Shown here piece by piece: positions 34,860 to 46,311 of a stretch of 64,000 bases of DNA (positions within the stretch are counted from its first letter, which is position 1; each line of letters opens with the position of its first letter). Below the pieces are notes generated by a model. It saw only the letters and a program-made list of their open reading frames with translations, was not told the origin of the DNA and made no database searches. Position numbers and translations under genes: made by a program. This DNA is from a candidate division WOR-3 bacterium. GTDB taxonomy: Bacteria; Hydrothermota; Hydrothermia; LBFQ01; DSFT01. The stretch covers positions 1,723 through 65,722 of the forward strand of contig JBDRXL010000001.1 of the NCBI GenBank assembly GCA_039802865.1, in the 5' to 3' direction.

Positions 34860-37712
34860 ATGTTAGTGATTTTAACATACTTTAATCCTGCTTATCCAGG
34901 ACTTTTATATTTCCCAAACTTTTACTTCTCTATTCCATACCTAAAAGCCCAAATTACGAACAATTGGTTAAATCTAAACATATATAATACTTATGTAAAT
35001 AGCTTTATAACTGATAATGATAAGAGCTATTTATTATCAGAGATAGATGGAAGAAACTTTTTCTTATGGGGATATAGTGATCTGTCAGTTTTTATAAATT
35101 ATAAGGGATTTTATCTTGGTGCTGAAAATTCTGGTGGTTCTTACTTTGCTACAAGAACAAATGACCCCATTGAATTTCTATTAAATGCTAATAATCAAGT
35201 AGATAAAATCTATGACTTATCCATAGACAAACTTCAAAGTTTAAGCTATATTCAATACTTCTTAGGCTATGCTTATAGATATAAAGATGTTATTTTTGGG
35301 TTAAGATTAAATTATTTACAAACAACTCCATATTTAGAAGTAAATAGCAATATAAATTTAGATAATGCTAAGCATTATTTGGCAAGTTTTGATACAATAA
35401 ACATTAAATATTATGCAGGAGGTGATGGATTATCTGCGGATTTAGGATTTTTATATGAGCCAAAAGGAAAAGGTTGGTTTTTAGGATTTAATATAAGAAA
35501 TTTGTTATCCAATATAAACTTTTCAAATAATTGGAAATTTCCATTTTATAAACCAGATTTTCAAAGAGATAGTATTTGGGTTATAAAGGGCTATTATCAA
35601 AAAACATCAGATACAACCGCTGAATTTGTAAAAACAGATAGCTTTTTATTATATATTTCGCCAGAAGAAGCATTTGAATTACAACTTATTGGAATGCTTG
35701 ATAGTATAAATGTTTTAAGACTTATCTTCGCAGATACATCTAATAAAAGCTTAATTGTAAATGATGCAATTTATAATAGAAATGTTATAAAAAATTATAG
35801 AATTCCACCTGTTTTTGCCTTGGATTTTGGATATAGAGATTTAACAAATAAATATGGATTTAATTTTGCTTATATTCAAGGATTTTCTGAAAGTTTTATA
35901 TCTACTAAAAAACCAAAATTCTTAGCAAGTGCATTTTATAAAATTTTCAAGTTTTTACCCCTTGGATTTTATATTTCCTTAGGTGGTAGAGAAAAATTTG
36001 AATTTGGACTTAATGGAGGACTTGATTTTAATTATTGGATATTAAACATGGGATGGGATTGGTCAAGAGGATTTAGTTATTCTGCAAAGGGACATAGAGT
36101 TTATTTAGAAAGTGCTTTTAAATCTCCAATTAAAGGAAAGCTTGAAATTAAAGTTATAGATTCTTTAACAAATAAAGTTATAGCAAATGCTGAGGTTAAT
36201 ATATTAAGAGGAACAAAAAGTTTGAGAAAATTATTCACAAATTACGAAGGATTAGTAACTTTAAATTTAGAACCAGATAAATATAAAATTGAAGTTTCGG
36301 CAAGAAATTATATTTCTAAAATTGATTCTATTGAAGTTATACCAAAAACAATAAATACAAAAATAATAAAACTAATGCCTGCTGGTGGTCTTTTAAATAT
36401 CGTTGTTCTTGATAGTATTAGTAGAGATACATTAAAGAATGTAAAAGTTGTAATAAATGACAGTTCTTATGAATATAATGGTGGAATTTTAAAAGCTTTT
36501 GCAAAGGAAGGTCCTGCACAAATTAGAGCATTTAAAGATAGATATAAAGATTATTATAGTGTTTTGGATGTAAAAATTGGAGATAGTATTAATAAGGAAA
36601 TTTTAATGTCTCCAAAATTTGCTAAGCTTTTTGTTAAAGTATTTGATGAAAAGACTAAGCAACCTCTTTTAGCAAACATTAAATTAGTAAAGAATGATAG
36701 CATTATTGCAAGTGTTCAAAGTGAAACATTAAGTATAGAACTTGAAGATGGAAATTATAAATTGCTTGTAAATAAGGAAGGATATGCACAATATAGTGAT
36801 GTATTTGAGATGAAAGGAGGAGTTGATTTAACGAAGGAAGTTTATTTAAGAAGCGATATTGGTTATTTGCTTGTTGAAGTAATAGATAAGATGACAGGAG
36901 AGCATCTAAATAATGCTCAAATTTTAATAATTTCTGAAAAAGGAGATACTACTTCAAGAGCTATTACTGATAATAGTGGCAAATATGAAACATCACTTGG
37001 TAAAGGTTTATATAAAGTAATTGCTCAAAAAGAAGAATATATACCAAATTCAGAATTTGTTCAAATTGAAAGAGATTCAAGAAACAGGATAGTGATTCCA
37101 TTAACACCAAAATTTGCTATTATATATGGACTTGTTCTTGATGCAGAAAAAGGATTTAGAGTAAAAGCAAAAATTGATATTAAGAAGGAAAATAATGTTA
37201 TAAATACAATTGAAGGAGATAGTTATTATGTAAAATTAGATGCAGGGGATTATGTTTTTGAAGTAAGAGCCAAGGATTATGCTCCAAGAATAGCCGATAT
37301 TCGTTTAAATAATGGTGAAAAATATAGAAGGGATTTCTTACTTACAAAAGTTGGACAAGTATTTACATTTAGAAATATTTACTTTGACTTTAATAAAGCT
37401 ACTATTAGAAAGGAATCTTATCCTGTCTTAGATTCAATATATCAATTCTTAGCCGAAAATCCAACAATTGTTGTAGAAGTTGCAGGACATGCTGATGAAA
37501 GAGGTGGTTATGAATACAATATAAGACTTACCCAAGCAAGAGCAAATGCAGTTGTTGATTATCTTGTAAAGAAAGGAATAGATCCTAATAGATTAATTCC
37601 AAAAGGTTATGGTTGGACTCAACCAGTTATAAAAGGAGCAAAAACAGAAAAAGAGCACCAATTAAATAGAAGAGTTGAATTTAGAATTATAAAAGAGATG
37701 GAAGGACAATAG
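34860..37712 (+). CDS. Large OmpA-family protein with an N-terminal beta-barrel-like region, five Ig-like/CarbopepD_reg-like domains and a C-terminal OmpA peptidoglycan-binding domain
   Basis: C-terminal OmpA_C motif FDFNKATIRKES...AGHADERGGYEYNIRLTQARANAV. Repeated ~80-aa modules (KLEIKVIDSLTNKVIANAEVNI..., LLNIVVLDSISRDTL..., KLFVKVFDEKTKQPL..., YLLVEVIDKMTGEHL..., IIYGLVLDAEKGF...). Confidence 0.6.
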   Translation: MLVILTYFNPAYPGLLYFPNFYFSIPYLKAQITNNWLNLNIYNTYVNSFITDNDKSYLLSEIDGRNFFLWGYSDLSVFINYKGFYLGAENSGGSYFATRTNDPIEFLLNANNQVDKIYDLSIDKLQSLSYIQYFLGYAYRYKDVIFGLRLNYLQTTPYLEVNSNINLDNAKHYLASFDTINIKYYAGGDGLSADLGFLYEPKGKGWFLGFNIRNLLSNINFSNNWKFPFYKPDFQRDSIWVIKGYYQKTSDTTAEFVKTDSFLLYISPEEAFELQLIGMLDSINVLRLIFADTSNKSLIVNDAIYNRNVIKNYRIPPVFALDFGYRDLTNKYGFNFAYIQGFSESFISTKKPKFLASAFYKIFKFLPLGFYISLGGREKFEFGLNGGLDFNYWILNMGWDWSRGFSYSAKGHRVYLESAFKSPIKGKLEIKVIDSLTNKVIANAEVNILRGTKSLRKLFTNYEGLVTLNLEPDKYKIEVSARNYISKIDSIEVIPKTINTKIIKLMPAGGLLNIVVLDSISRDTLKNVKVVINDSSYEYNGGILKAFAKEGPAQIRAFKDRYKDYYSVLDVKIGDSINKEILMSPKFAKLFVKVFDEKTKQPLLANIKLVKNDSIIASVQSETLSIELEDGNYKLLVNKEGYAQYSDVFEMKGGVDLTKEVYLRSDIGYLLVEVIDKMTGEHLNNAQILIISEKGDTTSRAITDNSGKYETSLGKGLYKVIAQKEEYIPNSEFVQIERDSRNRIVIPLTPKFAIIYGLVLDAEKGFRVKAKIDIKKENNVINTIEGDSYYVKLDAGDYVFEVRAKDYAPRIADIRLNNGEKYRRDFLLTKVGQVFTFRNIYFDFNKATIRKESYPVLDSIYQFLAENPTIVVEVAGHADERGGYEYNIRLTQARANAVVDYLVKKGIDPNRLIPKGYGWTQPVIKGAKTEKEHQLNRRVEFRIIKEMEGQ

Positions 37713-37724
37713 AGGGTTATTCCC

Positions 37725-37740
37725 CCTTTAAAATTTAAAA
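37725..37740 (+). promoter_or_regulatory. Promoter-like motif CCTTTAAAATTTAAAA ending immediately at the ATG of the DNA methyltransferase
   Basis: Recurrent motif. Confidence 0.4.
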
Positions 37741-38649
37741 ATGATTGAAATTGAAAAAATAGAAAATTTTATATCTATGACAAAAGTTGATTATAATAAC
37801 TATAAAGAATTTTTAAAAAATCGCAATTATGTTATAGTTGAAAATGTGAAATTGGAAATTGGGAGAAATTGGAAAATAAAAGAATTCGAACCAAAACATT
37901 TTGAATTAGAAACTACCAATGTCTGGTCCTTTCCCAATAGAGGTAAATGGGCAACGCATTATCTCAACTCAAAATATAGAGGTAATTGGGCACCTCAGGT
38001 TGTTAGAAATCTACTTATAAGATACACTAAGGAGGGGGATTGGGTTTTAGATCCTTTCGTTGGTTCGGGCACAACTTTAATAGAAGCAAAACTCCTCAGA
38101 AGAAATGCTATTGGTATAGATATTAATTATGAAGCGGTAATACTTACCTTGGATAGATTAAATTTTGATATGCCTCCTAACTTATTAGAAAATGATAAAA
38201 AACCAATAATAGAAGTTTATGTTGGCGATGCACGAAATTTAGATAAGATAGAGAATGAATCTATTGACTTTATTGCTGCCCATCCTCCATATGTGGATAT
38301 AATAGGTTATAGTAAAAATTCAAATTCCAAAATAGATGGAGATTTATCAAAAATACATTCTGTAGAAGATTTTTGCATAGAAATGAAAAAAGTTGCTAAG
38401 GAAATGTATAGAGTTCTGAAACCACATAAATTTTGTGCTATTTTGATAGGTGATACAAGAAGGAAAAAATATCATATTCCGATATCTTTCAAGGTTTTAA
38501 ATGTTTTTCTTGAAGTAGGATTTAAATTAAAGGAGGATATAATAAAAATTCAGCATAGAATGAAAACAACACCTTTATGGGTAAAGAGAAGTAAAGAGCT
38601 TAATTTCCTTCTTCTTCAATACGAACACTTATTTGTATTTGAAAAATGA
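37741..38649 (+). CDS. SAM-dependent DNA methyltransferase (N6-adenine or N4-cytosine), motif I before motif IV
   Basis: AdoMet-binding VLDPFVGSGTT...IGIDIN..A, then catalytic AAHPPY about 80 aa downstream. Confidence 0.6.
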   Translation: MIEIEKIENFISMTKVDYNNYKEFLKNRNYVIVENVKLEIGRNWKIKEFEPKHFELETTNVWSFPNRGKWATHYLNSKYRGNWAPQVVRNLLIRYTKEGDWVLDPFVGSGTTLIEAKLLRRNAIGIDINYEAVILTLDRLNFDMPPNLLENDKKPIIEVYVGDARNLDKIENESIDFIAAHPPYVDIIGYSKNSNSKIDGDLSKIHSVEDFCIEMKKVAKEMYRVLKPHKFCAILIGDTRRKKYHIPISFKVLNVFLEVGFKLKEDIIKIQHRMKTTPLWVKRSKELNFLLLQYEHLFVFEK

Positions 38650-39206
38650 GGCAAGTTGACTTGGAAAAGTTTATGTCTTTTAAAAGAGGAAATTCATTAG
38701 AAAAACCTTTAAGTGTTGTGAAAATTAATGATAATTATATTTTAGCGATATATAAGGGTAAAAAGAGTAAAGCTGACATTTTAATTCGTTATAGGCAAAA
38801 ACTAAAAAATAACAAGTGGAGCAATATAAGAACACCGAAACATATTCACTGGATTGTTGATATTTTAATGAAATTAAGCAGGGAACCAGAACTTACCAAA
38901 AAGTTTTTAGATACATTAATGAATATCTGGGATACTCTTAAACCCTTAAATGAAAAAACAAGGGATAAATTGAAATTAGAAGACTTATTTAAATATGATA
39001 ATAAAATTTTAAATGAATTTCGGGAACTAAGTAAATATGGGGAGTATAATATTAAATTCTTAATACTTCTAGCTAAACTTTTAATGATTCAAGAAAAAAC
39101 TAATTATCCCAAAGGAAAAATTTTTCAAAAGCTAATTGAAAAGCTAAAAGAAGGAGAAGATTTATTTAGTATATTGCAAATAGCAACTTTAAGGAAGATG
39201 AGTTAA
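38646..39206 (+). CDS. Hypothetical 186-aa protein translationally coupled to the methyltransferase; candidate restriction or control partner, unverified
   Basis: ATGA overlap with the MTase stop. No recognisable nuclease motif. Confidence 0.3.
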   Translation: MRQVDLEKFMSFKRGNSLEKPLSVVKINDNYILAIYKGKKSKADILIRYRQKLKNNKWSNIRTPKHIHWIVDILMKLSREPELTKKFLDTLMNIWDTLKPLNEKTRDKLKLEDLFKYDNKILNEFRELSKYGEYNIKFLILLAKLLMIQEKTNYPKGKIFQKLIEKLKEGEDLFSILQIATLRKMS

Positions 39207-39222: not shown

Positions 39223-39237
39223 GCTTTAAAATTTCAA
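39223..39237 (+). promoter_or_regulatory. Promoter-like motif GCTTTAAAATTTCAA 1 nt upstream of the ATG at 39239
   Basis: Recurrent motif. Confidence 0.4.
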
Positions 39238-39238
39238 T

Positions 39239-39832
39239 ATGACTGTTCAAGTGCCTGAAATTAAATTGAATGAAAATGTTAAATTAAATAGTAAAGAAAC
39301 CGCTTTAATAATAGTGGATATGCAAAATGATTTTTGTGATGAGAAAGGAAGTTTATTTGTTCCAGAAAGTAGAAAAACAATAGAACCCATTCAAAAACTA
39401 ATAGAAAAAGCAAGAGAAAAGAATGTGAAAATTTTTTATACTCAAGACACTCACAAAAAAGATGATAAAGAATTTGAAATATGGCCTGTTCATGTAGTAG
39501 AAGGAACATGGGGTTGGGAAATTATACCCGAACTTAAACCTACTGAAAATGATATTATTATAAGGAAATTAAGATATGATGGATTTTATGGAACAAGCCT
39601 AGATCATTATTTAAAAATCTACAATATAAGGAACTTGGTAATAGTTGGAACAGTTGCTAATATATGTGTTCTCCATACTGCTGGAAGTGCTGCTTTAAGA
39701 TGGTATAATATAATTGTTCCTATTGATGGGATTTCTGCTTTAAATGAATTTGATTATTATATTGCTTTAAGGCAAATAGACTTTTTATATAAAGGTATTT
39801 TAACGAAAGTTGAATTTATAGAATTTGTATGA
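39239..39832 (+). CDS. Isochorismatase-family cysteine hydrolase (nicotinamidase-like)
   Basis: N-terminal [12 protein letters not shown], catalytic Cys context GTVANICV and a conserved Lys. Confidence 0.65.
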
Positions 39833-41688
39833 TAAAAGAATATTTTGATGTAATTGTAATAGGTGGAGGACATGCAGGTATTGAAGCAAGTTTAGCAAGT
39901 GCAAGAATGGGTTTGAAAACTCTTCTATTAACACTTGATATTGATAAAATTGGTCAGATGTCTTGTAATCCAGCTATGGGGGGAATTGCAAAAGCACATT
40001 TAATTAAAGAAATTGATGCACTTGGTGGAGAGATAGCAGTGGCAACAGATGAATGCGCAATATCTACAAAAATGCTAAATGTGAGAAAAGGTCCAGCAGT
40101 ATGGTCTTTAAGAGCACAAGTTGATAGAAAAGCTTATAGAGAAAGGATGAAAAGAGTTGTAATGAATACAAAGAATTTAAGTGTATTTCAAGAGGAAGTT
40201 GTAAAATTAATAATTGATGGATATAAGGCAAAAGGTGTAATTACATCACTTGGATATGAATTTTATGCAAAAGCAATTGTTCTAACAACTGGGACATTTC
40301 TTGGAGGGAAAATTTATATAGGATATAATACTAAAATGGCTGGAAGGCTTGGAGAATCCCCATCTATTGAACTATCTAAGCAATTAAGAGAAATTTTTAA
40401 TATATCAAGATTAAAAACAGGAACATCTCCAAGAATAGATGGGAGAACTATTGATTTTTCAAAATTAAAAATTGATGAACCTGATAATCCACCAAGAGGT
40501 TTTTCATTTAGAAATCCTTACTTAAACATAGAACAATTACCTTGCTATGTAACTTATTCAAATGAAAGAACACATGAAATAGTTATGAAAAATTTACATT
40601 TAGCTCCTATGTATAATGGATTAATAAAAAGTAAAGGTCCAAGATATTGTCCAAGTTTTGAAACAAAAGTTGTAGAATTCTTTAAAGAAGTCAAAAGTCA
40701 TAGAATTGTATTAGAACCAGATGGAAGAGACACAAATGAGTGGTATTTAAATGGCTTTTCAACATCATTACCATTAGAAGTTCAATATGAAATGTTAAGA
40801 ACACTTCCTGGACTTGAAAATGCAGTAATATTAAGACCAGGATATGCAGTAGAATATGATTATGTAGATCCAAGAGAATTATATCCTTGGCTTGAAACAA
40901 AGAAAATAGAAAATCTATTTTTAGCTGGACAAATAAATGGAACAACGGGTTATGAAGAAGCAGCAGCACAAGGTATAATAGCGGGTATTAATGCAGGATT
41001 AAGGGCTATGAATAAAGAACCATTTTTCCTTACAAGACAAGATGGTTATATTGGAGTCTTAATTGATGATTTAATTACAAAAGGAGCAGATGAGCCATAT
41101 AGAATGCTAACCGCAAGAAATGAATATAGATTAATTCATAGAATGGATAATGCTTATGATAGACTTTCAGAATATGGATATAAACTTGGACTTTTAAAAT
41201 ATGAAGATTATAAAATTATAAAAGAAAAAATTGATATTGTGAGAGAGGAAATTGAAAGATTAAAAAATACAAGAATTAAAGCAAGTGAAATAAATCCAAA
41301 ACTTAAAGAGTTAAATAGCTCAGAAGTTAAAGAAAGCATTACCTTAGCAGATCTTTTAAAAAGAGTTGAAATTAAATATGAGCACTTATTAAAGTGGGGA
41401 TATGGTAAAATTGAAGATAAATTATTGATTGAAAAAATTGAAATTGAAATTAAATATGAAGGATATATTAAAAATCTCTTACAAGAAGCAGAAAAATTGA
41501 GGAGAATAGAAAAAGTAATAATTCCAGATGAAATAGATTATTATGCAATAGTTAATGTATCAAACGAAGGAAAAGATAAACTTAACAAATATAAACCAAA
41601 AACAATTGGGCAAGCACTAAGAATTCCAGGCATAAAACCTACGGATGTTATAAATCTTTATTACTATTTACAAAGGAGTAAAAATTGA
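39829..41688 (+). CDS. mnmG: tRNA uridine 5-carboxymethylaminomethyl modification enzyme MnmG (GidA)
   Basis: FAD-binding motif [14 protein letters not shown] and the full-length conserved core. About 619 aa. Confidence 0.9.
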
Positions 41689-41769
41689 TGGATGTAATTT
41701 ATTTTTCAATTTTGTTATTTATAGCACTTTACTGGGTTTTAAAGCCTATTGTTAAAAGCGCTAAGTGAA

Positions 41770-42202
41770 ATGGATTATACTGTTTCTGAAGTATTTAAGG
41801 AAGTGTTTGAGGCCTTATATGGCAACAAACTCGGTAATCTATATAGTAATGCACGAAATGATATTACTACTATATTTGGGGCTCACAGAACAAAGAATAA
41901 AACAGAAAGTTACTATTGACAAAGAAATTATTTATAAAAGAATAAGTGGTCAAGAGATAGTTTCTTATGGAGTATTTGTTGTTGATAATGAAAAAAGGGG
42001 ATCGAACTTCTTTCTTTTAGAAGAAATTGATGAAGATTTTTATGTAAATCCAAGAAACACAATGTTCCAGGTAAAATATAATCCTTTCCTTCGAAAACCC
42101 ATTGACTACTATTCATTCATAATGAACTTAACCAATTCGGTTATCAAGTCCCTTACAAAGAGTTTAAATACAACTAAAACCGAAATTGCTTATCTAACAT
42201 GA
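41770..42202 (+). pseudogene. Disrupted gene remnant upstream of the second DNA MTase. Its N-terminal part (41770-41919, MDYTVSEVFKEVFEALYGNKLGNLYSNARND...) and C-terminal part (about 41920-42202) lie in different frames.
   Basis: The globular-looking N-terminal segment ends at a stop and the rest continues in the +1 frame. The frame switch falls near an A-rich run around 41900-41925. The ORF-track 145-aa GTG-start ORF has a junk-like hydrophobic N-terminus. Confidence 0.3.
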
Positions 42203-43551
42203 GAAAGAATAACATTTTAAATGAAAAAATTGGCTTTGTTCAAACCCCATCAGAAATAGCTAAGTTAATGATTATGTTATCAACAGTTGATAAAAATTCT
42301 AATATATTAGATACGGGTTGTGGAGAAGGTATTTTTTTGCAAGAGCTTGAAAAAGAAGGATATATAAATTGCTATGGTATAGAAATAAATAAAGAGCTTT
42401 ATGAATTATGCAAAAAGAAATTCAAAGATAAATATAAGATAATTTTGGGAGATTTCTTAACTTATAGTTTTAATGAGAAATTTGATTTAATTATAGGAAA
42501 TCCGCCATACATTCATTTTAATCAAATACCTACACAAATTCGAAACAATGTAAGAAAAATTATCAAAACAAGCGAAGGAGATATTTATTATGCTTTTATT
42601 ATAAGGTCAATACAACTTTTAAAAAATGGTGGGGAACTTATATACATTGTCCCCTACTCCTTTTTTTATAACACTTATGCAAAAATAGTAAGGGAATTTA
42701 TACTTAATTATGGAAAAATAGAGATAATTATTGATTTAGATGAAGCAAGAATTTTTAATAATGAAAATCCAGAAACAATTATATTTAAATTTAAAAAGGG
42801 AAAATTCAACTTAAATCAAGAGAAAATAATCCTTTTAAGAATAAAGAGGAAAAATTCAAAACCTTATGAAATATACATAAAAGCAAAAAATTCATTAGAA
42901 ACAAAAAATTCAAACGATTTATTTGAATATAACATAATCCCCCATTATACAAATACAAATCAATGGTCTTCACTATTTTTTTATATTCCTAATTTCAAAT
43001 ATATTCTATTAAAAGAAATTGCAAAAGTTGGTGTAGGAATGGTATCAGGATTTGATAAAGCATTTATAATACAAGATGATAGTAAATTTACTTTTGAAGA
43101 AGGAAAACTTATAAAAAAGTTTGTGAAAGCAAAACATTGTAAGAGATATGTTGTAGATGGATATACAAAATATATTCTTATTGATGATAGCATTAAAAGT
43201 GAAGAATATTTAAAAGAAAATTATCCAAACATTTATTTAAAACTTGAAGTTTATAAGGAAGAAATGAAAAATAGATATTTGGTAAATAAGATGTGGTTTA
43301 ATTGGCAAGCTTTAAGAAACTATGAATTTTTATTAAAAAATTATAATAAAAAACGCATTTATGTGCCCACCTTAGATAGACATAATTATAATAGATTTAG
43401 CTTAGGAGAAGAAGGATTATTACCAGCAGGTGATGTGCTATTTATACAACCATTTGATGAAGAAAATTTATATTTTTTACTTGGTTATCTTAATAGCTCT
43501 TTTTTAGAAAATACTATCTTGAAAATGGAGGAAGAAGAGGAGGACGCATAG
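42199..43551 (+). CDS. Gamma-class (TaqI/Eco57I-like) N6-adenine DNA methyltransferase. Its C-terminus is truncated by a frameshift at a T6 tract (43500-43505); the lost C-terminal ~60 aa continues in the +1 frame to 43733.
   Basis: Motifs FVQTPSEIAKLM, LDTGCGEGIF and IIGNPPYI. In the +1 frame, YLENGGRRGGRIVFTQKFLENAKIPIFENKL... matches the conserved C-terminal end of this MTase family. Confidence 0.6.
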   Translation: MRKNNILNEKIGFVQTPSEIAKLMIMLSTVDKNSNILDTGCGEGIFLQELEKEGYINCYGIEINKELYELCKKKFKDKYKIILGDFLTYSFNEKFDLIIGNPPYIHFNQIPTQIRNNVRKIIKTSEGDIYYAFIIRSIQLLKNGGELIYIVPYSFFYNTYAKIVREFILNYGKIEIIIDLDEARIFNNENPETIIFKFKKGKFNLNQEKIILLRIKRKNSKPYEIYIKAKNSLETKNSNDLFEYNIIPHYTNTNQWSSLFFYIPNFKYILLKEIAKVGVGMVSGFDKAFIIQDDSKFTFEEGKLIKKFVKAKHCKRYVVDGYTKYILIDDSIKSEEYLKENYPNIYLKLEVYKEEMKNRYLVNKMWFNWQALRNYEFLLKNYNKKRIYVPTLDRHNYNRFSLGEEGLLPAGDVLFIQPFDEENLYFLLGYLNSSFLENTILKMEEEEEDA

Positions 43552-45161: not shown

Positions 45162-46311
45162 TTATAATTTCATCTTGTTTTATAGTAGTAATAATAGCTT
45201 GATTATCCTTAATATAAACATTTATCTCTGACCTAATACCAAATTCATTTTCAATATAAATGCCAGGTTCAATTGAAAATAAACAACCATTTAAAATTCT
45301 TCTATCATCATGTGTTTCAAAATTATCCATATTAACATTTATCCAATGAACATTTTTCCCAATAGAATGCCCTGTTCTATGAATAAAATACTTTAAATAA
45401 CCTTTCTTTTCAATATAGCTTCTTACAACATCATCTACTTCATATCCAAAAATTGGTAAATTTTTACTTAATTTTTCATTAATAAATTCAACCGCTAAAT
45501 CTCTTGCACTTTTAACAATCTCAAAGACTTCCTTATATTTCTCAAAAATTTTATCTCCATAAAAGCCAACCCAAGTAATATCATAATAAATACTATTTTC
45601 TTTATTAACTCTTGCCCAAATATCAATTAAAAATGGCTTATTATATTCAATTTTCTTAAAATTGGATTTTGTAGGCATATAATGTGGATTTGCAGAATTT
45701 TCAGAAATGGCAAAAATTGGATAATCACCATCTGTTGTTAAATTATTACAAATTAACTCATTATATATAAATTGTTGAGCTTCATATTCATTTTTAAAGT
45801 ACTTGATATTTTCAAATGTTTTAAATAAAACATTCTTTATAATTTCACCTGCTTCATAATGAGTTTTTATTTCATCTTCACTAATTAAAGAAAACATTTG
45901 AACTAAATTTGCAGAAGAAACAATTTCAATGTTTAAGCTTTTTAAAATTTCATAAGTTCCAGCATCTAATATAGAAATATATGGAATTGAGCAATTTTTG
46001 GAATATTCCATAGCAATTAACTTATAATTTTTTAAAATATCTTTTAATTTTTCTCTCAATTCAATCCATGTTAAATATAATATTTTCTTTCCAGGTAAAT
46101 GTTCAAGTTTATGTGGTTCAACCCTTGACAATAATTTTATTGGTTCTCCATCCTTTGGTATAAAATAAAACCATCTTCTTGTAAAATGCTCCTTTGGATT
46201 TATATTTAATATCCAATGAGCTATATAATTTCTATTTTGAAAATCATAAAATAACCATCCGTCTAAATTAAAATCCTTTAATAATGTTTGAATTTTTAAA
46301 ATTCTGTCCAT
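45151..46311 (-). CDS. M24-family metallopeptidase (Xaa-Pro aminopeptidase/prolidase-like)
   Basis: C-terminal pita-bread fold motifs HRTGHSIG and FSIEPGIY. Confidence 0.65.
   Translation of the reverse strand: MDRILKIQTLLKDFNLDGWLFYDFQNRNYIAHWILNINPKEHFTRRWFYFIPKDGEPIKLLSRVEPHKLEHLPGKKILYLTWIELREKLKDILKNYKLIAMEYSKNCSIPYISILDAGTYEILKSLNIEIVSSANLVQMFSLISEDEIKTHYEAGEIIKNVLFKTFENIKYFKNEYEAQQFIYNELICNNLTTDGDYPIFAISENSANPHYMPTKSNFKKIEYNKPFLIDIWARVNKENSIYYDITWVGFYGDKIFEKYKEVFEIVKSARDLAVEFINEKLSKNLPIFGYEVDDVVRSYIEKKGYLKYFIHRTGHSIGKNVHWINVNMDNFETHDDRRILNGCLFSIEPGIYIENEFGIRSEINVYIKDNQAIITTIKQDEIIIIV

Follow-up and report, generated by a model that had tools for sequence, protein, structure and literature searches.

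A pair of adjoining genes in a 64,000-nucleotide stretch of DNA from a candidate division WOR-3 bacterium (hereafter the window, meaning the whole stretch analysed) is, in our judgement and with moderate confidence, a mobile Type II restriction-modification (R-M) cassette directed at GATC. The first gene (37741..38649, forward strand) encodes a circularly permuted beta-class adenine methyltransferase (MTase) of 302 amino acids, whose probable specificity is GATC, and the second (38646..39206, forward strand) a basic protein of 186 amino acids and pI 9.9, here called X, which is a candidate GATC-specific restriction enzyme of an undescribed family. According to this model, the MTase would methylate the adenine of GATC in host DNA, while X, made from the same transcript, would act as the restriction component, binding unmethylated GATC in incoming DNA and breaking that DNA by means of a catalytic centre built from the near-invariant residues D44, H66, D72, K76, E150 and K151. 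The structure of the two genes, the family and permutation of the MTase, the linkage of X to GATC methylases and endonucleases, the mobility of the cassette and the depletion of GATC are documented below; we infer the GATC specificity of this pair, any catalytic activity of X and its chemistry. An earlier note on this DNA had suggested either a compact R-M module or an MTase accompanied by a controller. The former has gained weight from the behaviour of the two genes as a mobile unit with an empty site in a relative, their patchy spread, the almost constant presence of a DNA MTase beside X and the occurrence of DpnII in the slot of X.

The genomic company of X was surveyed in 81 non-redundant loci from different species, in which the open reading frames (ORFs) within 1.5 kb of X were clustered and named by Pfam. 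A DNA MTase is found within this distance in 78 loci, including one in which MTase and X form a single ORF (L028); the loci without an adjoining MTase are L021, L039 and L056, the last two of which lie at contig ends. Neighbours comprise N6_N4 MTases (PF01555; 62 of the 81 loci), Dam-like D12 MTases (PF02086; 38), DpnII endonucleases (PF04556; 22), MutH-like endonucleases (PF02976; 9) and a small ORF without Pfam assignment that displays a D...ExK pattern, designated c5 (4). The DpnII family and the MutH/Sau3AI group act on GATC, and the classic cassette for GATC joins Dam to a second, DpnA-like MTase. Because its neighbours are DpnII, MutH-like and Dam-type genes, X is to be regarded as a component of GATC systems. 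Its MTase partners belong to the non-homologous alpha Dam-like and N6_N4 groups, the latter in both beta and permuted order, and this swapping of partners therefore fits a shared DNA site better than a protein-specific interaction. For the same reason a role of X as specificity subunit of the permuted MTase was rejected: X also pairs with Dam-like enzymes, and the permuted MTase works with DpnII alone. In 43 of the 81 loci the MTase or MTases and X make up the entire module, and X is the only possible nuclease there. Two loci (L038 and L054) have the gene order Dam-X-N6N4, and MboI-type operons carry their endonuclease gene in the slot that matches X in this arrangement.

A further link to GATC is provided by relatives of the window MTase itself. 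A permuted MTase 64% identical to it (P0137) is the sole MTase of its locus and is directly followed by a DpnII endonuclease and by no other module gene; in the loci L171 and L172 the permuted MTase has R.DpnII as the next gene. In a Methanocaldococcus sp. and in the complete genome of M. infernus ME, whose X gene lies at CP002009.1 384388-384960, the permuted MTase is followed by X, as in the window. Since the same MTase subfamily precedes either gene, X and R.DpnII can be regarded as alternative occupants of one slot. MTase relatives of 50-60% identity also occur in Dam, MutH-like and DpnII loci. The 64%-identical, DpnII-paired enzyme and this family context make GATC the probable specificity of the window pair. 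Systems of the DpnII, MboI and LlaDCHI type combine a Dam-like alpha MTase, a DpnA/MboC-like beta MTase and a PF04556 endonuclease. They resemble the window pair in their site, probably the same, and in the MTase superfamilies nearby, and X-family genes lie physically within such operons in 22 loci. The window pair differs from them in having no PF04556, MutH-like or Dam gene and a single permuted MTase with the motif HPPY, and its putative endonuclease X shows no detected resemblance to DpnII in sequence or structure.

The host DNA itself avoids GATC. The window contains 30 GATC sites, whereas 124.6 are expected from a trinucleotide Markov model, and no DpnII, MutH-like, c5 or Dam gene is present anywhere in its 64 kb. 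When 392 kb of X-locus flanks were pooled, with the module genes masked, the ratio of observed to expected GATC was 0.44 around loci without another restriction endonuclease and 0.45 around those with a known GATC endonuclease. Other palindromes gave ratios of 0.65-1.05, except CTAG (0.45-0.56). This equal depletion around loci that hold only MTases and X and around loci with recognised endonucleases speaks against a purely accessory function of X, an alternative considered below.

Mobility of the pair is apparent from a metagenomic contig (L094) in which an OmpA-like gene (84% amino acid identity) and an isochorismatase gene (82%) stand 49 bp apart and the cassette is absent. In the window, an OmpA-family gene with a product of 950 amino acids ends at 37712, upstream of the MTase gene, and X is followed by an isochorismatase-family gene (39239..39832) and then by mnmG (39829..41688). 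The cassette is bracketed by two forward-strand copies of the 11-nt gene-start motif CTTTAAAATTT, which form an 11-bp direct repeat: the left copy (37726..37736) stands 4 nt 5' of the MTase ATG, and the right copy (39224..39234) is the gene-start motif of the isochorismatase-family gene and the right edge of the cassette. The empty site of L094 has a single copy. This empty site identifies the MTase-X pair as a mobile accessory unit, and the sequence comparison thus shows a cassette that is mobile even though it uses the host's own start signal. The earlier note had judged from the native promoter motif that the locus is not an obviously recent insertion; the motif is indeed present, but a relative with 82-84% identity in the flanking proteins lacks the cassette. 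Patchy distribution is the second sign of mobility, a relative of X being present in 162 of 185,579 species genomes.

The two ORFs, of 302 and 186 amino acids, share the sequence ATGA (38646..38649, forward strand), which holds the MTase stop codon and the first possible start codon of X, as the earlier note had described. This overlap, together with the MTase found beside X in 78 of 81 loci, ties X to its cognate methylase. The true start of X, and hence the 4-nt overlap, is not certain: Met10 of the 186-residue ORF (an alternative start at 38673) is invariant in 55 homologues, and the NCBI annotation begins there and gives 177 amino acids, but the frame is open back to the MTase stop in every close relative. 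One NCBI record also gives the MTase as 290 amino acids.

The 302-residue protein is a DNA MTase with intact motifs for both S-adenosylmethionine (SAM) binding and catalysis. SAM-binding motif I (DPFVGSGTT, residues 104-112; 38050..38076, forward strand) is followed by IGIDIN (residues 124-129) and lies 77 residues ahead of catalytic motif IV (HPPY, residues 181-184; 38281..38292, forward strand), which forms the end of AAHPPY (residues 179-184). The canonical beta order of motif IV, target recognition domain (TRD) and motif I is therefore not found. This reversal, already pointed out from the letters alone, is confirmed by two alignments. The Pfam family PF01555 (N6_N4_Mtase) matches the protein in two swapped stretches (1.9e-26, 93.8 bits, cut-off 26.7), residues 31-133 aligning to profile positions 113-216 of 221, the C-terminal half. 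Similarly, residues 158-240 correspond to residues 23-101 of the beta-class structure 2zie, and residues 88-145 to residues 225-282. Because the halves align in swapped order with both, the sequence identifies the enzyme as a circular permutation of a beta-class N6/N4 DNA MTase, with the SAM-binding half placed before the catalytic half; the break point falls within the stretch that in beta enzymes makes up the TRD. The PADLOC model MTase_II (PDLC03376), which is derived from REBASE Type II enzymes, spans the protein end to end (3.5e-80, 267 bits), and catalogued enzymes therefore already include the permuted arrangement. Minor circularly permuted classes of amino-MTases, delta and zeta (M.MwoI, M.TvoORF1413P), have been proposed (Bujnicki 2002, as cited in PMC3874165), and as described in the citing paper they share with the window enzyme a relationship to the beta class and another order of the halves. 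Compared with these minor classes, the invariance of HPPY in the subfamily of the window enzyme (n=26, the DpnII-paired member included) is unusual, as is its motif IV His, which stands where Asp, Asn or Ser is usual. Residues D104, F106 and G108-T112 of motif I are invariant in the same 26 members. The enzyme thus provides a natural example of a circularly permuted beta-class MTase in which the catalytic motif HPPY is invariant. Its motif I codons contain one of the 30 GATC sites of the window (38050-38053; GAT CCT, Asp104-Pro105).

The order of motif I and motif IV is also that of Trm11, and the earlier note had named a match to an RNA m2G MTase family as the result that would refute its proposal. 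A protein of the Trm11/RlmL kind, or some other MTase not acting on DNA, would leave X as an unrelated neighbour. The generic family PF01170, to which Trm11 and RlmL belong, does match above its cut-off (34.9 bits against 22.3), there are weak matches to TIGR01177 and Trm14, several relatives are named 'TRM11 family SAM-dependent methyltransferase' by NCBI, and as in Trm11/RlmL a DPFxGSGT motif I precedes an xPPY motif IV. The equivalog models, on the other hand, fail by a wide margin, with NCBIfam scores of 45.9 against a cut-off of 316.55 for TIGR01177 and 28.3 against 280 for Trm14, and the DNA-MTase models score far better: the match to PF01555 includes the beta-class-specific segment ahead of motif I, and that to PDLC03376 extends over the whole protein. 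Unlike Trm11/RlmL, the window enzyme carries no THUMP or other RNA-binding domain in a Pfam search, and its genomic partner is X, while its relatives are partnered by DpnII, MutH-like and Dam genes. A function on RNA is not supported by these comparisons, and we consider it very improbable.

Protein X has no match in Pfam, NCBIfam, PADLOC or PHROGs, none among PDB sequences whether as a single sequence or as a 55-sequence profile, and none by tblastn in 72,556 plasmids or 50,697 phage records; no description of its family was found in the literature. An AlphaFold2 model based on 55 sequences is confident (pLDDT 88.8, pTM 0.85); in it a short helix leads into an antiparallel sheet of five strands (residues 12-52), and nine helices follow. 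Foldseek searches of PDB and BFVD with this model returned nothing significant, the best E-value being 0.4, and neither profiles nor folds of the PD-(D/E)XK, HNH, GIY-YIG and PLD superfamilies matched. The earlier description of an ORF without recognisable fold therefore stands despite a confident model. The accompanying remark that many small endonucleases are unique in sequence does not apply to X, which has hundreds of relatives at 45-80% identity. One search yielded 498 clusters at 90% identity, in which any names given are all 'hypothetical', and an exhaustive profile search 323 clusters at 50% identity. Archaeal hosts include Thermoplasmata, Nitrososphaeria, Methanocaldococcus and DPANN archaea, and bacterial hosts Aquificota, Patescibacteria, Bacteroidota, Spirochaetota, Chloroflexota, Planctomycetota, Proteobacteria and others. 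Best BLASTP identity assigns the window to a candidate division WOR-3 bacterium. Its X is 62-67% identical to archaeal copies and is nearer to these than to the majority of those from bacteria. Both R-M systems and permuted MTases are already known kinds; it is the partner family that is undescribed in the libraries and literature searched and that has no structural relative among the models compared.

In an alignment that reaches down to 20-30% identity, residues G38, D44, Y49, H66, W69, D72, K76, L145, E150 and K151 of X are at least 90% conserved, and these, like further polar sites, show strict conservation throughout the 81 loci, whether another endonuclease is present or not. Three near-invariant carboxylates combined with His and Lys, in so basic a protein (pI 9.9), would suit a metal-dependent active site on a DNA-binding protein better than a passive reader. 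We also entertain the more specific proposal, to which we give a little below an even chance, that X represents a new structural and catalytic family of restriction enzymes for unmethylated GATC, with an alpha/beta fold unrelated to PD-(D/E)XK, HNH, GIY-YIG, PLD and HALFPIPE. Its active site would lie mainly on helices (H66, D72, K76, E150 and K151), with D44 on a strand, and its chemistry might be other than ordinary phosphodiester hydrolysis. The family would have spread horizontally through Archaea and Bacteria, in many cases as an addition to GATC systems already in place. Several more familiar assignments were tried and dropped. By eye, PD-(D/E)XK was set aside since the conserved residues are mostly on helices, His-Me/HNH since the first hairpin strand has no conserved His, and an HD domain since there is no HD doublet; a HEPN Rx4-6H motif (R62...H68) was discarded since the structure matches include no HEPN protein. 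Longer forms of X (~280 and 336 amino acids) carry N-terminal extensions and still occur in Dam, N6_N4, MutH-like or DpnII loci; these extensions were rejected as nuclease domains, since Pfam does not match them and they lack conserved acidic or His residues.

The HALFPIPE fold of PabI consists of a curved antiparallel sheet of strands 3-5 and 7-9, extended across the dimer, with Y68, H211 and D214 as catalytic residues. If X were a base-excising restriction enzyme of this kind, it would remove the unmethylated adenine of GATC without a metal instead of hydrolysing the phosphodiester. R.PabI itself came to light as an uncharacterised ORF travelling with an MTase gene (PMC1874622, PMC10273834), and members of its family (R.PabI 2dvy, R.CcoLI 7cfa) resemble X as small basic proteins next to an adenine MTase, recognisable only through their co-mobility with it and present in hyperthermophilic archaea and scattered bacteria. 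The occurrence of both proteins with adenine MTase partners in hyperthermophilic archaea (PMC10273834) is matched by some likeness in topology, the first half of PabI (four strands, a 3-10 helix, a strand and three helices; PMC1874622) recalling the five strands and following helices of X. The PabI site is GTAC, against probably GATC for X. X also lacks the second half of the beta-sheet (strands 6-10) that forms the half pipe, Foldseek found no relationship (best E-value 0.4), and there is no sequence similarity. Membership of X in the PabI family finds no support in these comparisons, and a mechanism of the PabI type seems improbable.

A small basic protein co-transcribed with an MTase could also be a controller, that is, a C-protein-like transcription factor that times the expression of MTase and endonuclease. 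C proteins are helix-turn-helix (HTH) proteins of ~70-100 amino acids encoded upstream of the endonuclease gene. X, at 186 amino acids, is about twice that size, yields no HTH or other DNA-binding family hit in Pfam or NCBIfam, shows the conservation of an enzyme, with invariant acidic, His and Lys residues, and accompanies three types of MTase. Furthermore, 43 loci hold no other endonuclease that could be controlled. In one relative locus (P0204; L173 2257-3930), where a divergently oriented X lies on the minus strand, the usual controller position directly before the permuted MTase is held by a separate ORF of 57 amino acids that resembles ribbon-helix-helix (RHH) proteins (MAKSKKVQVAFTEKQWKLLEELRGEMG...) and is possibly a controller in its own right. 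The controller option of the earlier note is thus hardly tenable.

The strongest competitor of the R-M model, although we think it unlikely, holds that X is a non-nuclease accessory which reads GATC or its methylation state, for example an establishment regulator, a helper or targeting factor of the MTase, or a sensor, and that the window pair is an orphan GATC methylase with its reader. Several observations weigh against X as a restriction enzyme, and some of them favour this competitor. Neither a nuclease fold nor the catalytic signature of another known superfamily was detected in X. Self-sufficient or candidate endonucleases (DpnII, MutH-like or c5) accompany X in 35 of the 81 loci, and X is therefore not needed there as the sole restriction enzyme. 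X lies closer to N6_N4 genes (0-12 nt) than to DpnII genes (25-67 nt). It is fused in single ORFs to MTases, namely a beta-class N6_N4 enzyme (L028 516-1898, 460 amino acids) and a Dam-like D12 enzyme (P0344, 462 amino acids), and to a C-terminal TIR effector domain (P0369; L084 4408-5574; PF13676, 1.6e-17), and these fusions also fit a domain that reads a DNA site. Intact copies of X occur in L021 and L039 with no MTase in the DNA available, and the flanks of L021 show no GATC depletion (34 sites observed, 37 expected). A different system in another part of the genome could be the cause of the GATC depletion in the window, and the specificity of the pair is deduced from the 64% identity to a DpnII-paired MTase and from family context.

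Other evidence tells against a mere reader and for restriction by X. The three near-invariant carboxylates with His and Lys have the look of an active site, the association with non-homologous MTases speaks against a protein-specific cofactor, and the permuted MTase functions with DpnII in loci without X. In addition, MTase-X cassettes spread horizontally and insert between housekeeping genes in the manner of selfish R-M units, and the usual place of a controller is taken by the separate RHH-like ORF in one relative. In the R-M model, the composite loci would be tandem iso-specific systems, which is plausible because a host that already methylates GATC can safely gain a second GATC endonuclease. 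In the X-TIR fusion, H66 and W69 are replaced while D44, Y49, D72, K76, E150 and K151 are kept, and no MTase is found in the 7.3-kb contig L084; this protein may serve in defence, with the X domain redeployed to sense DNA.

To our knowledge, restriction enzymes are built on only a handful of catalytic folds, of which that of PabI is the most recent addition. PabI, too, was recognised from the co-movement of its unknown ORF with an MTase, and then proved to use unexpected chemistry. X is compact, highly conserved, partly from thermophiles and tied to the well-studied GATC methylation site. Should it cut GATC, it would provide a new enzyme family for R-M biology, for the annotation of defence islands and possibly for biotechnology, and would explain hundreds of 'hypothetical' genes within GATC systems. 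If it has some other function, it would represent a novel type of reader of GATC or of its methylation state, which would also be worth knowing.

Some X loci merit separate mention. The c5 family (~174 amino acids; L056 125-649, L042, L046 and L057) adjoins X and GATC-type MTases, has no Pfam assignment and contains a D-x12-E-x-K pattern (DVIFVIANNTFFIIEIK); a further small endonuclease, as yet uncharacterised, may be represented here. In L021 (3950-4543), a 1.14-Mb contig of a Nitrososphaeria metagenome-assembled genome, X is intact and the 4 kb to each side of it contain no MTase; the adjoining gene on the opposite strand encodes a protein of 561 amino acids that looks DUF262/GmrSD-like by eye. 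The locus of P0240 holds a distant X-like ORF. L013 (3101-4444) holds a decayed copy of the cassette, with the permuted MTase broken into four reading-frame segments and only 83 amino acids left in the ORF of X; this could reflect a pseudogenised R-M pair or an assembly error.

The motif that precedes the MTase gene is a general feature of the window. With at most one mismatch, CTTTAAAATTT has 73 matches in the window against 35 expected, and 22 of the 44 sites of its core TTTAAAATTT lie upstream of the start of an ORF of at least 80 amino acids, at a distance of 2-21 nt and in most cases of 4-8 nt. The native promoter motif claimed by the earlier note is real, since half of the core sites directly precede starts of long ORFs, and one copy of the motif stands 4 nt before the MTase ATG. 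Copies recur 4-8 nt before start codons on both strands, for example at 624, 6308, 12950, 24961, 29085, 37726, 39224 and 62722. By position, the motif looks like a -10-type promoter element abutting start codons, which would imply leaderless mRNAs.

Finally, GATC is not the palindrome most strongly avoided in the window. By the same trinucleotide Markov model, GTAC occurs once (at 45799) against 61.9 expected, an avoidance far stronger than that of GATC (30/124.6) or CTAG (13/93.5), and this suggests strong GTAC-directed restriction in the lineage. On the other side of mnmG lies a second DNA MTase of 450 amino acids (42199..43551, forward strand), with matches to Eco57I (PF07669, 1.1e-24) and N6_Mtase (PF02384, 1e-16) and with NPPY at residue 101. 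An ORF of 145 amino acids without a family hit (41765..42202, forward strand) precedes and overlaps it, and the interval 41765..43551 may represent a second R-M pair.

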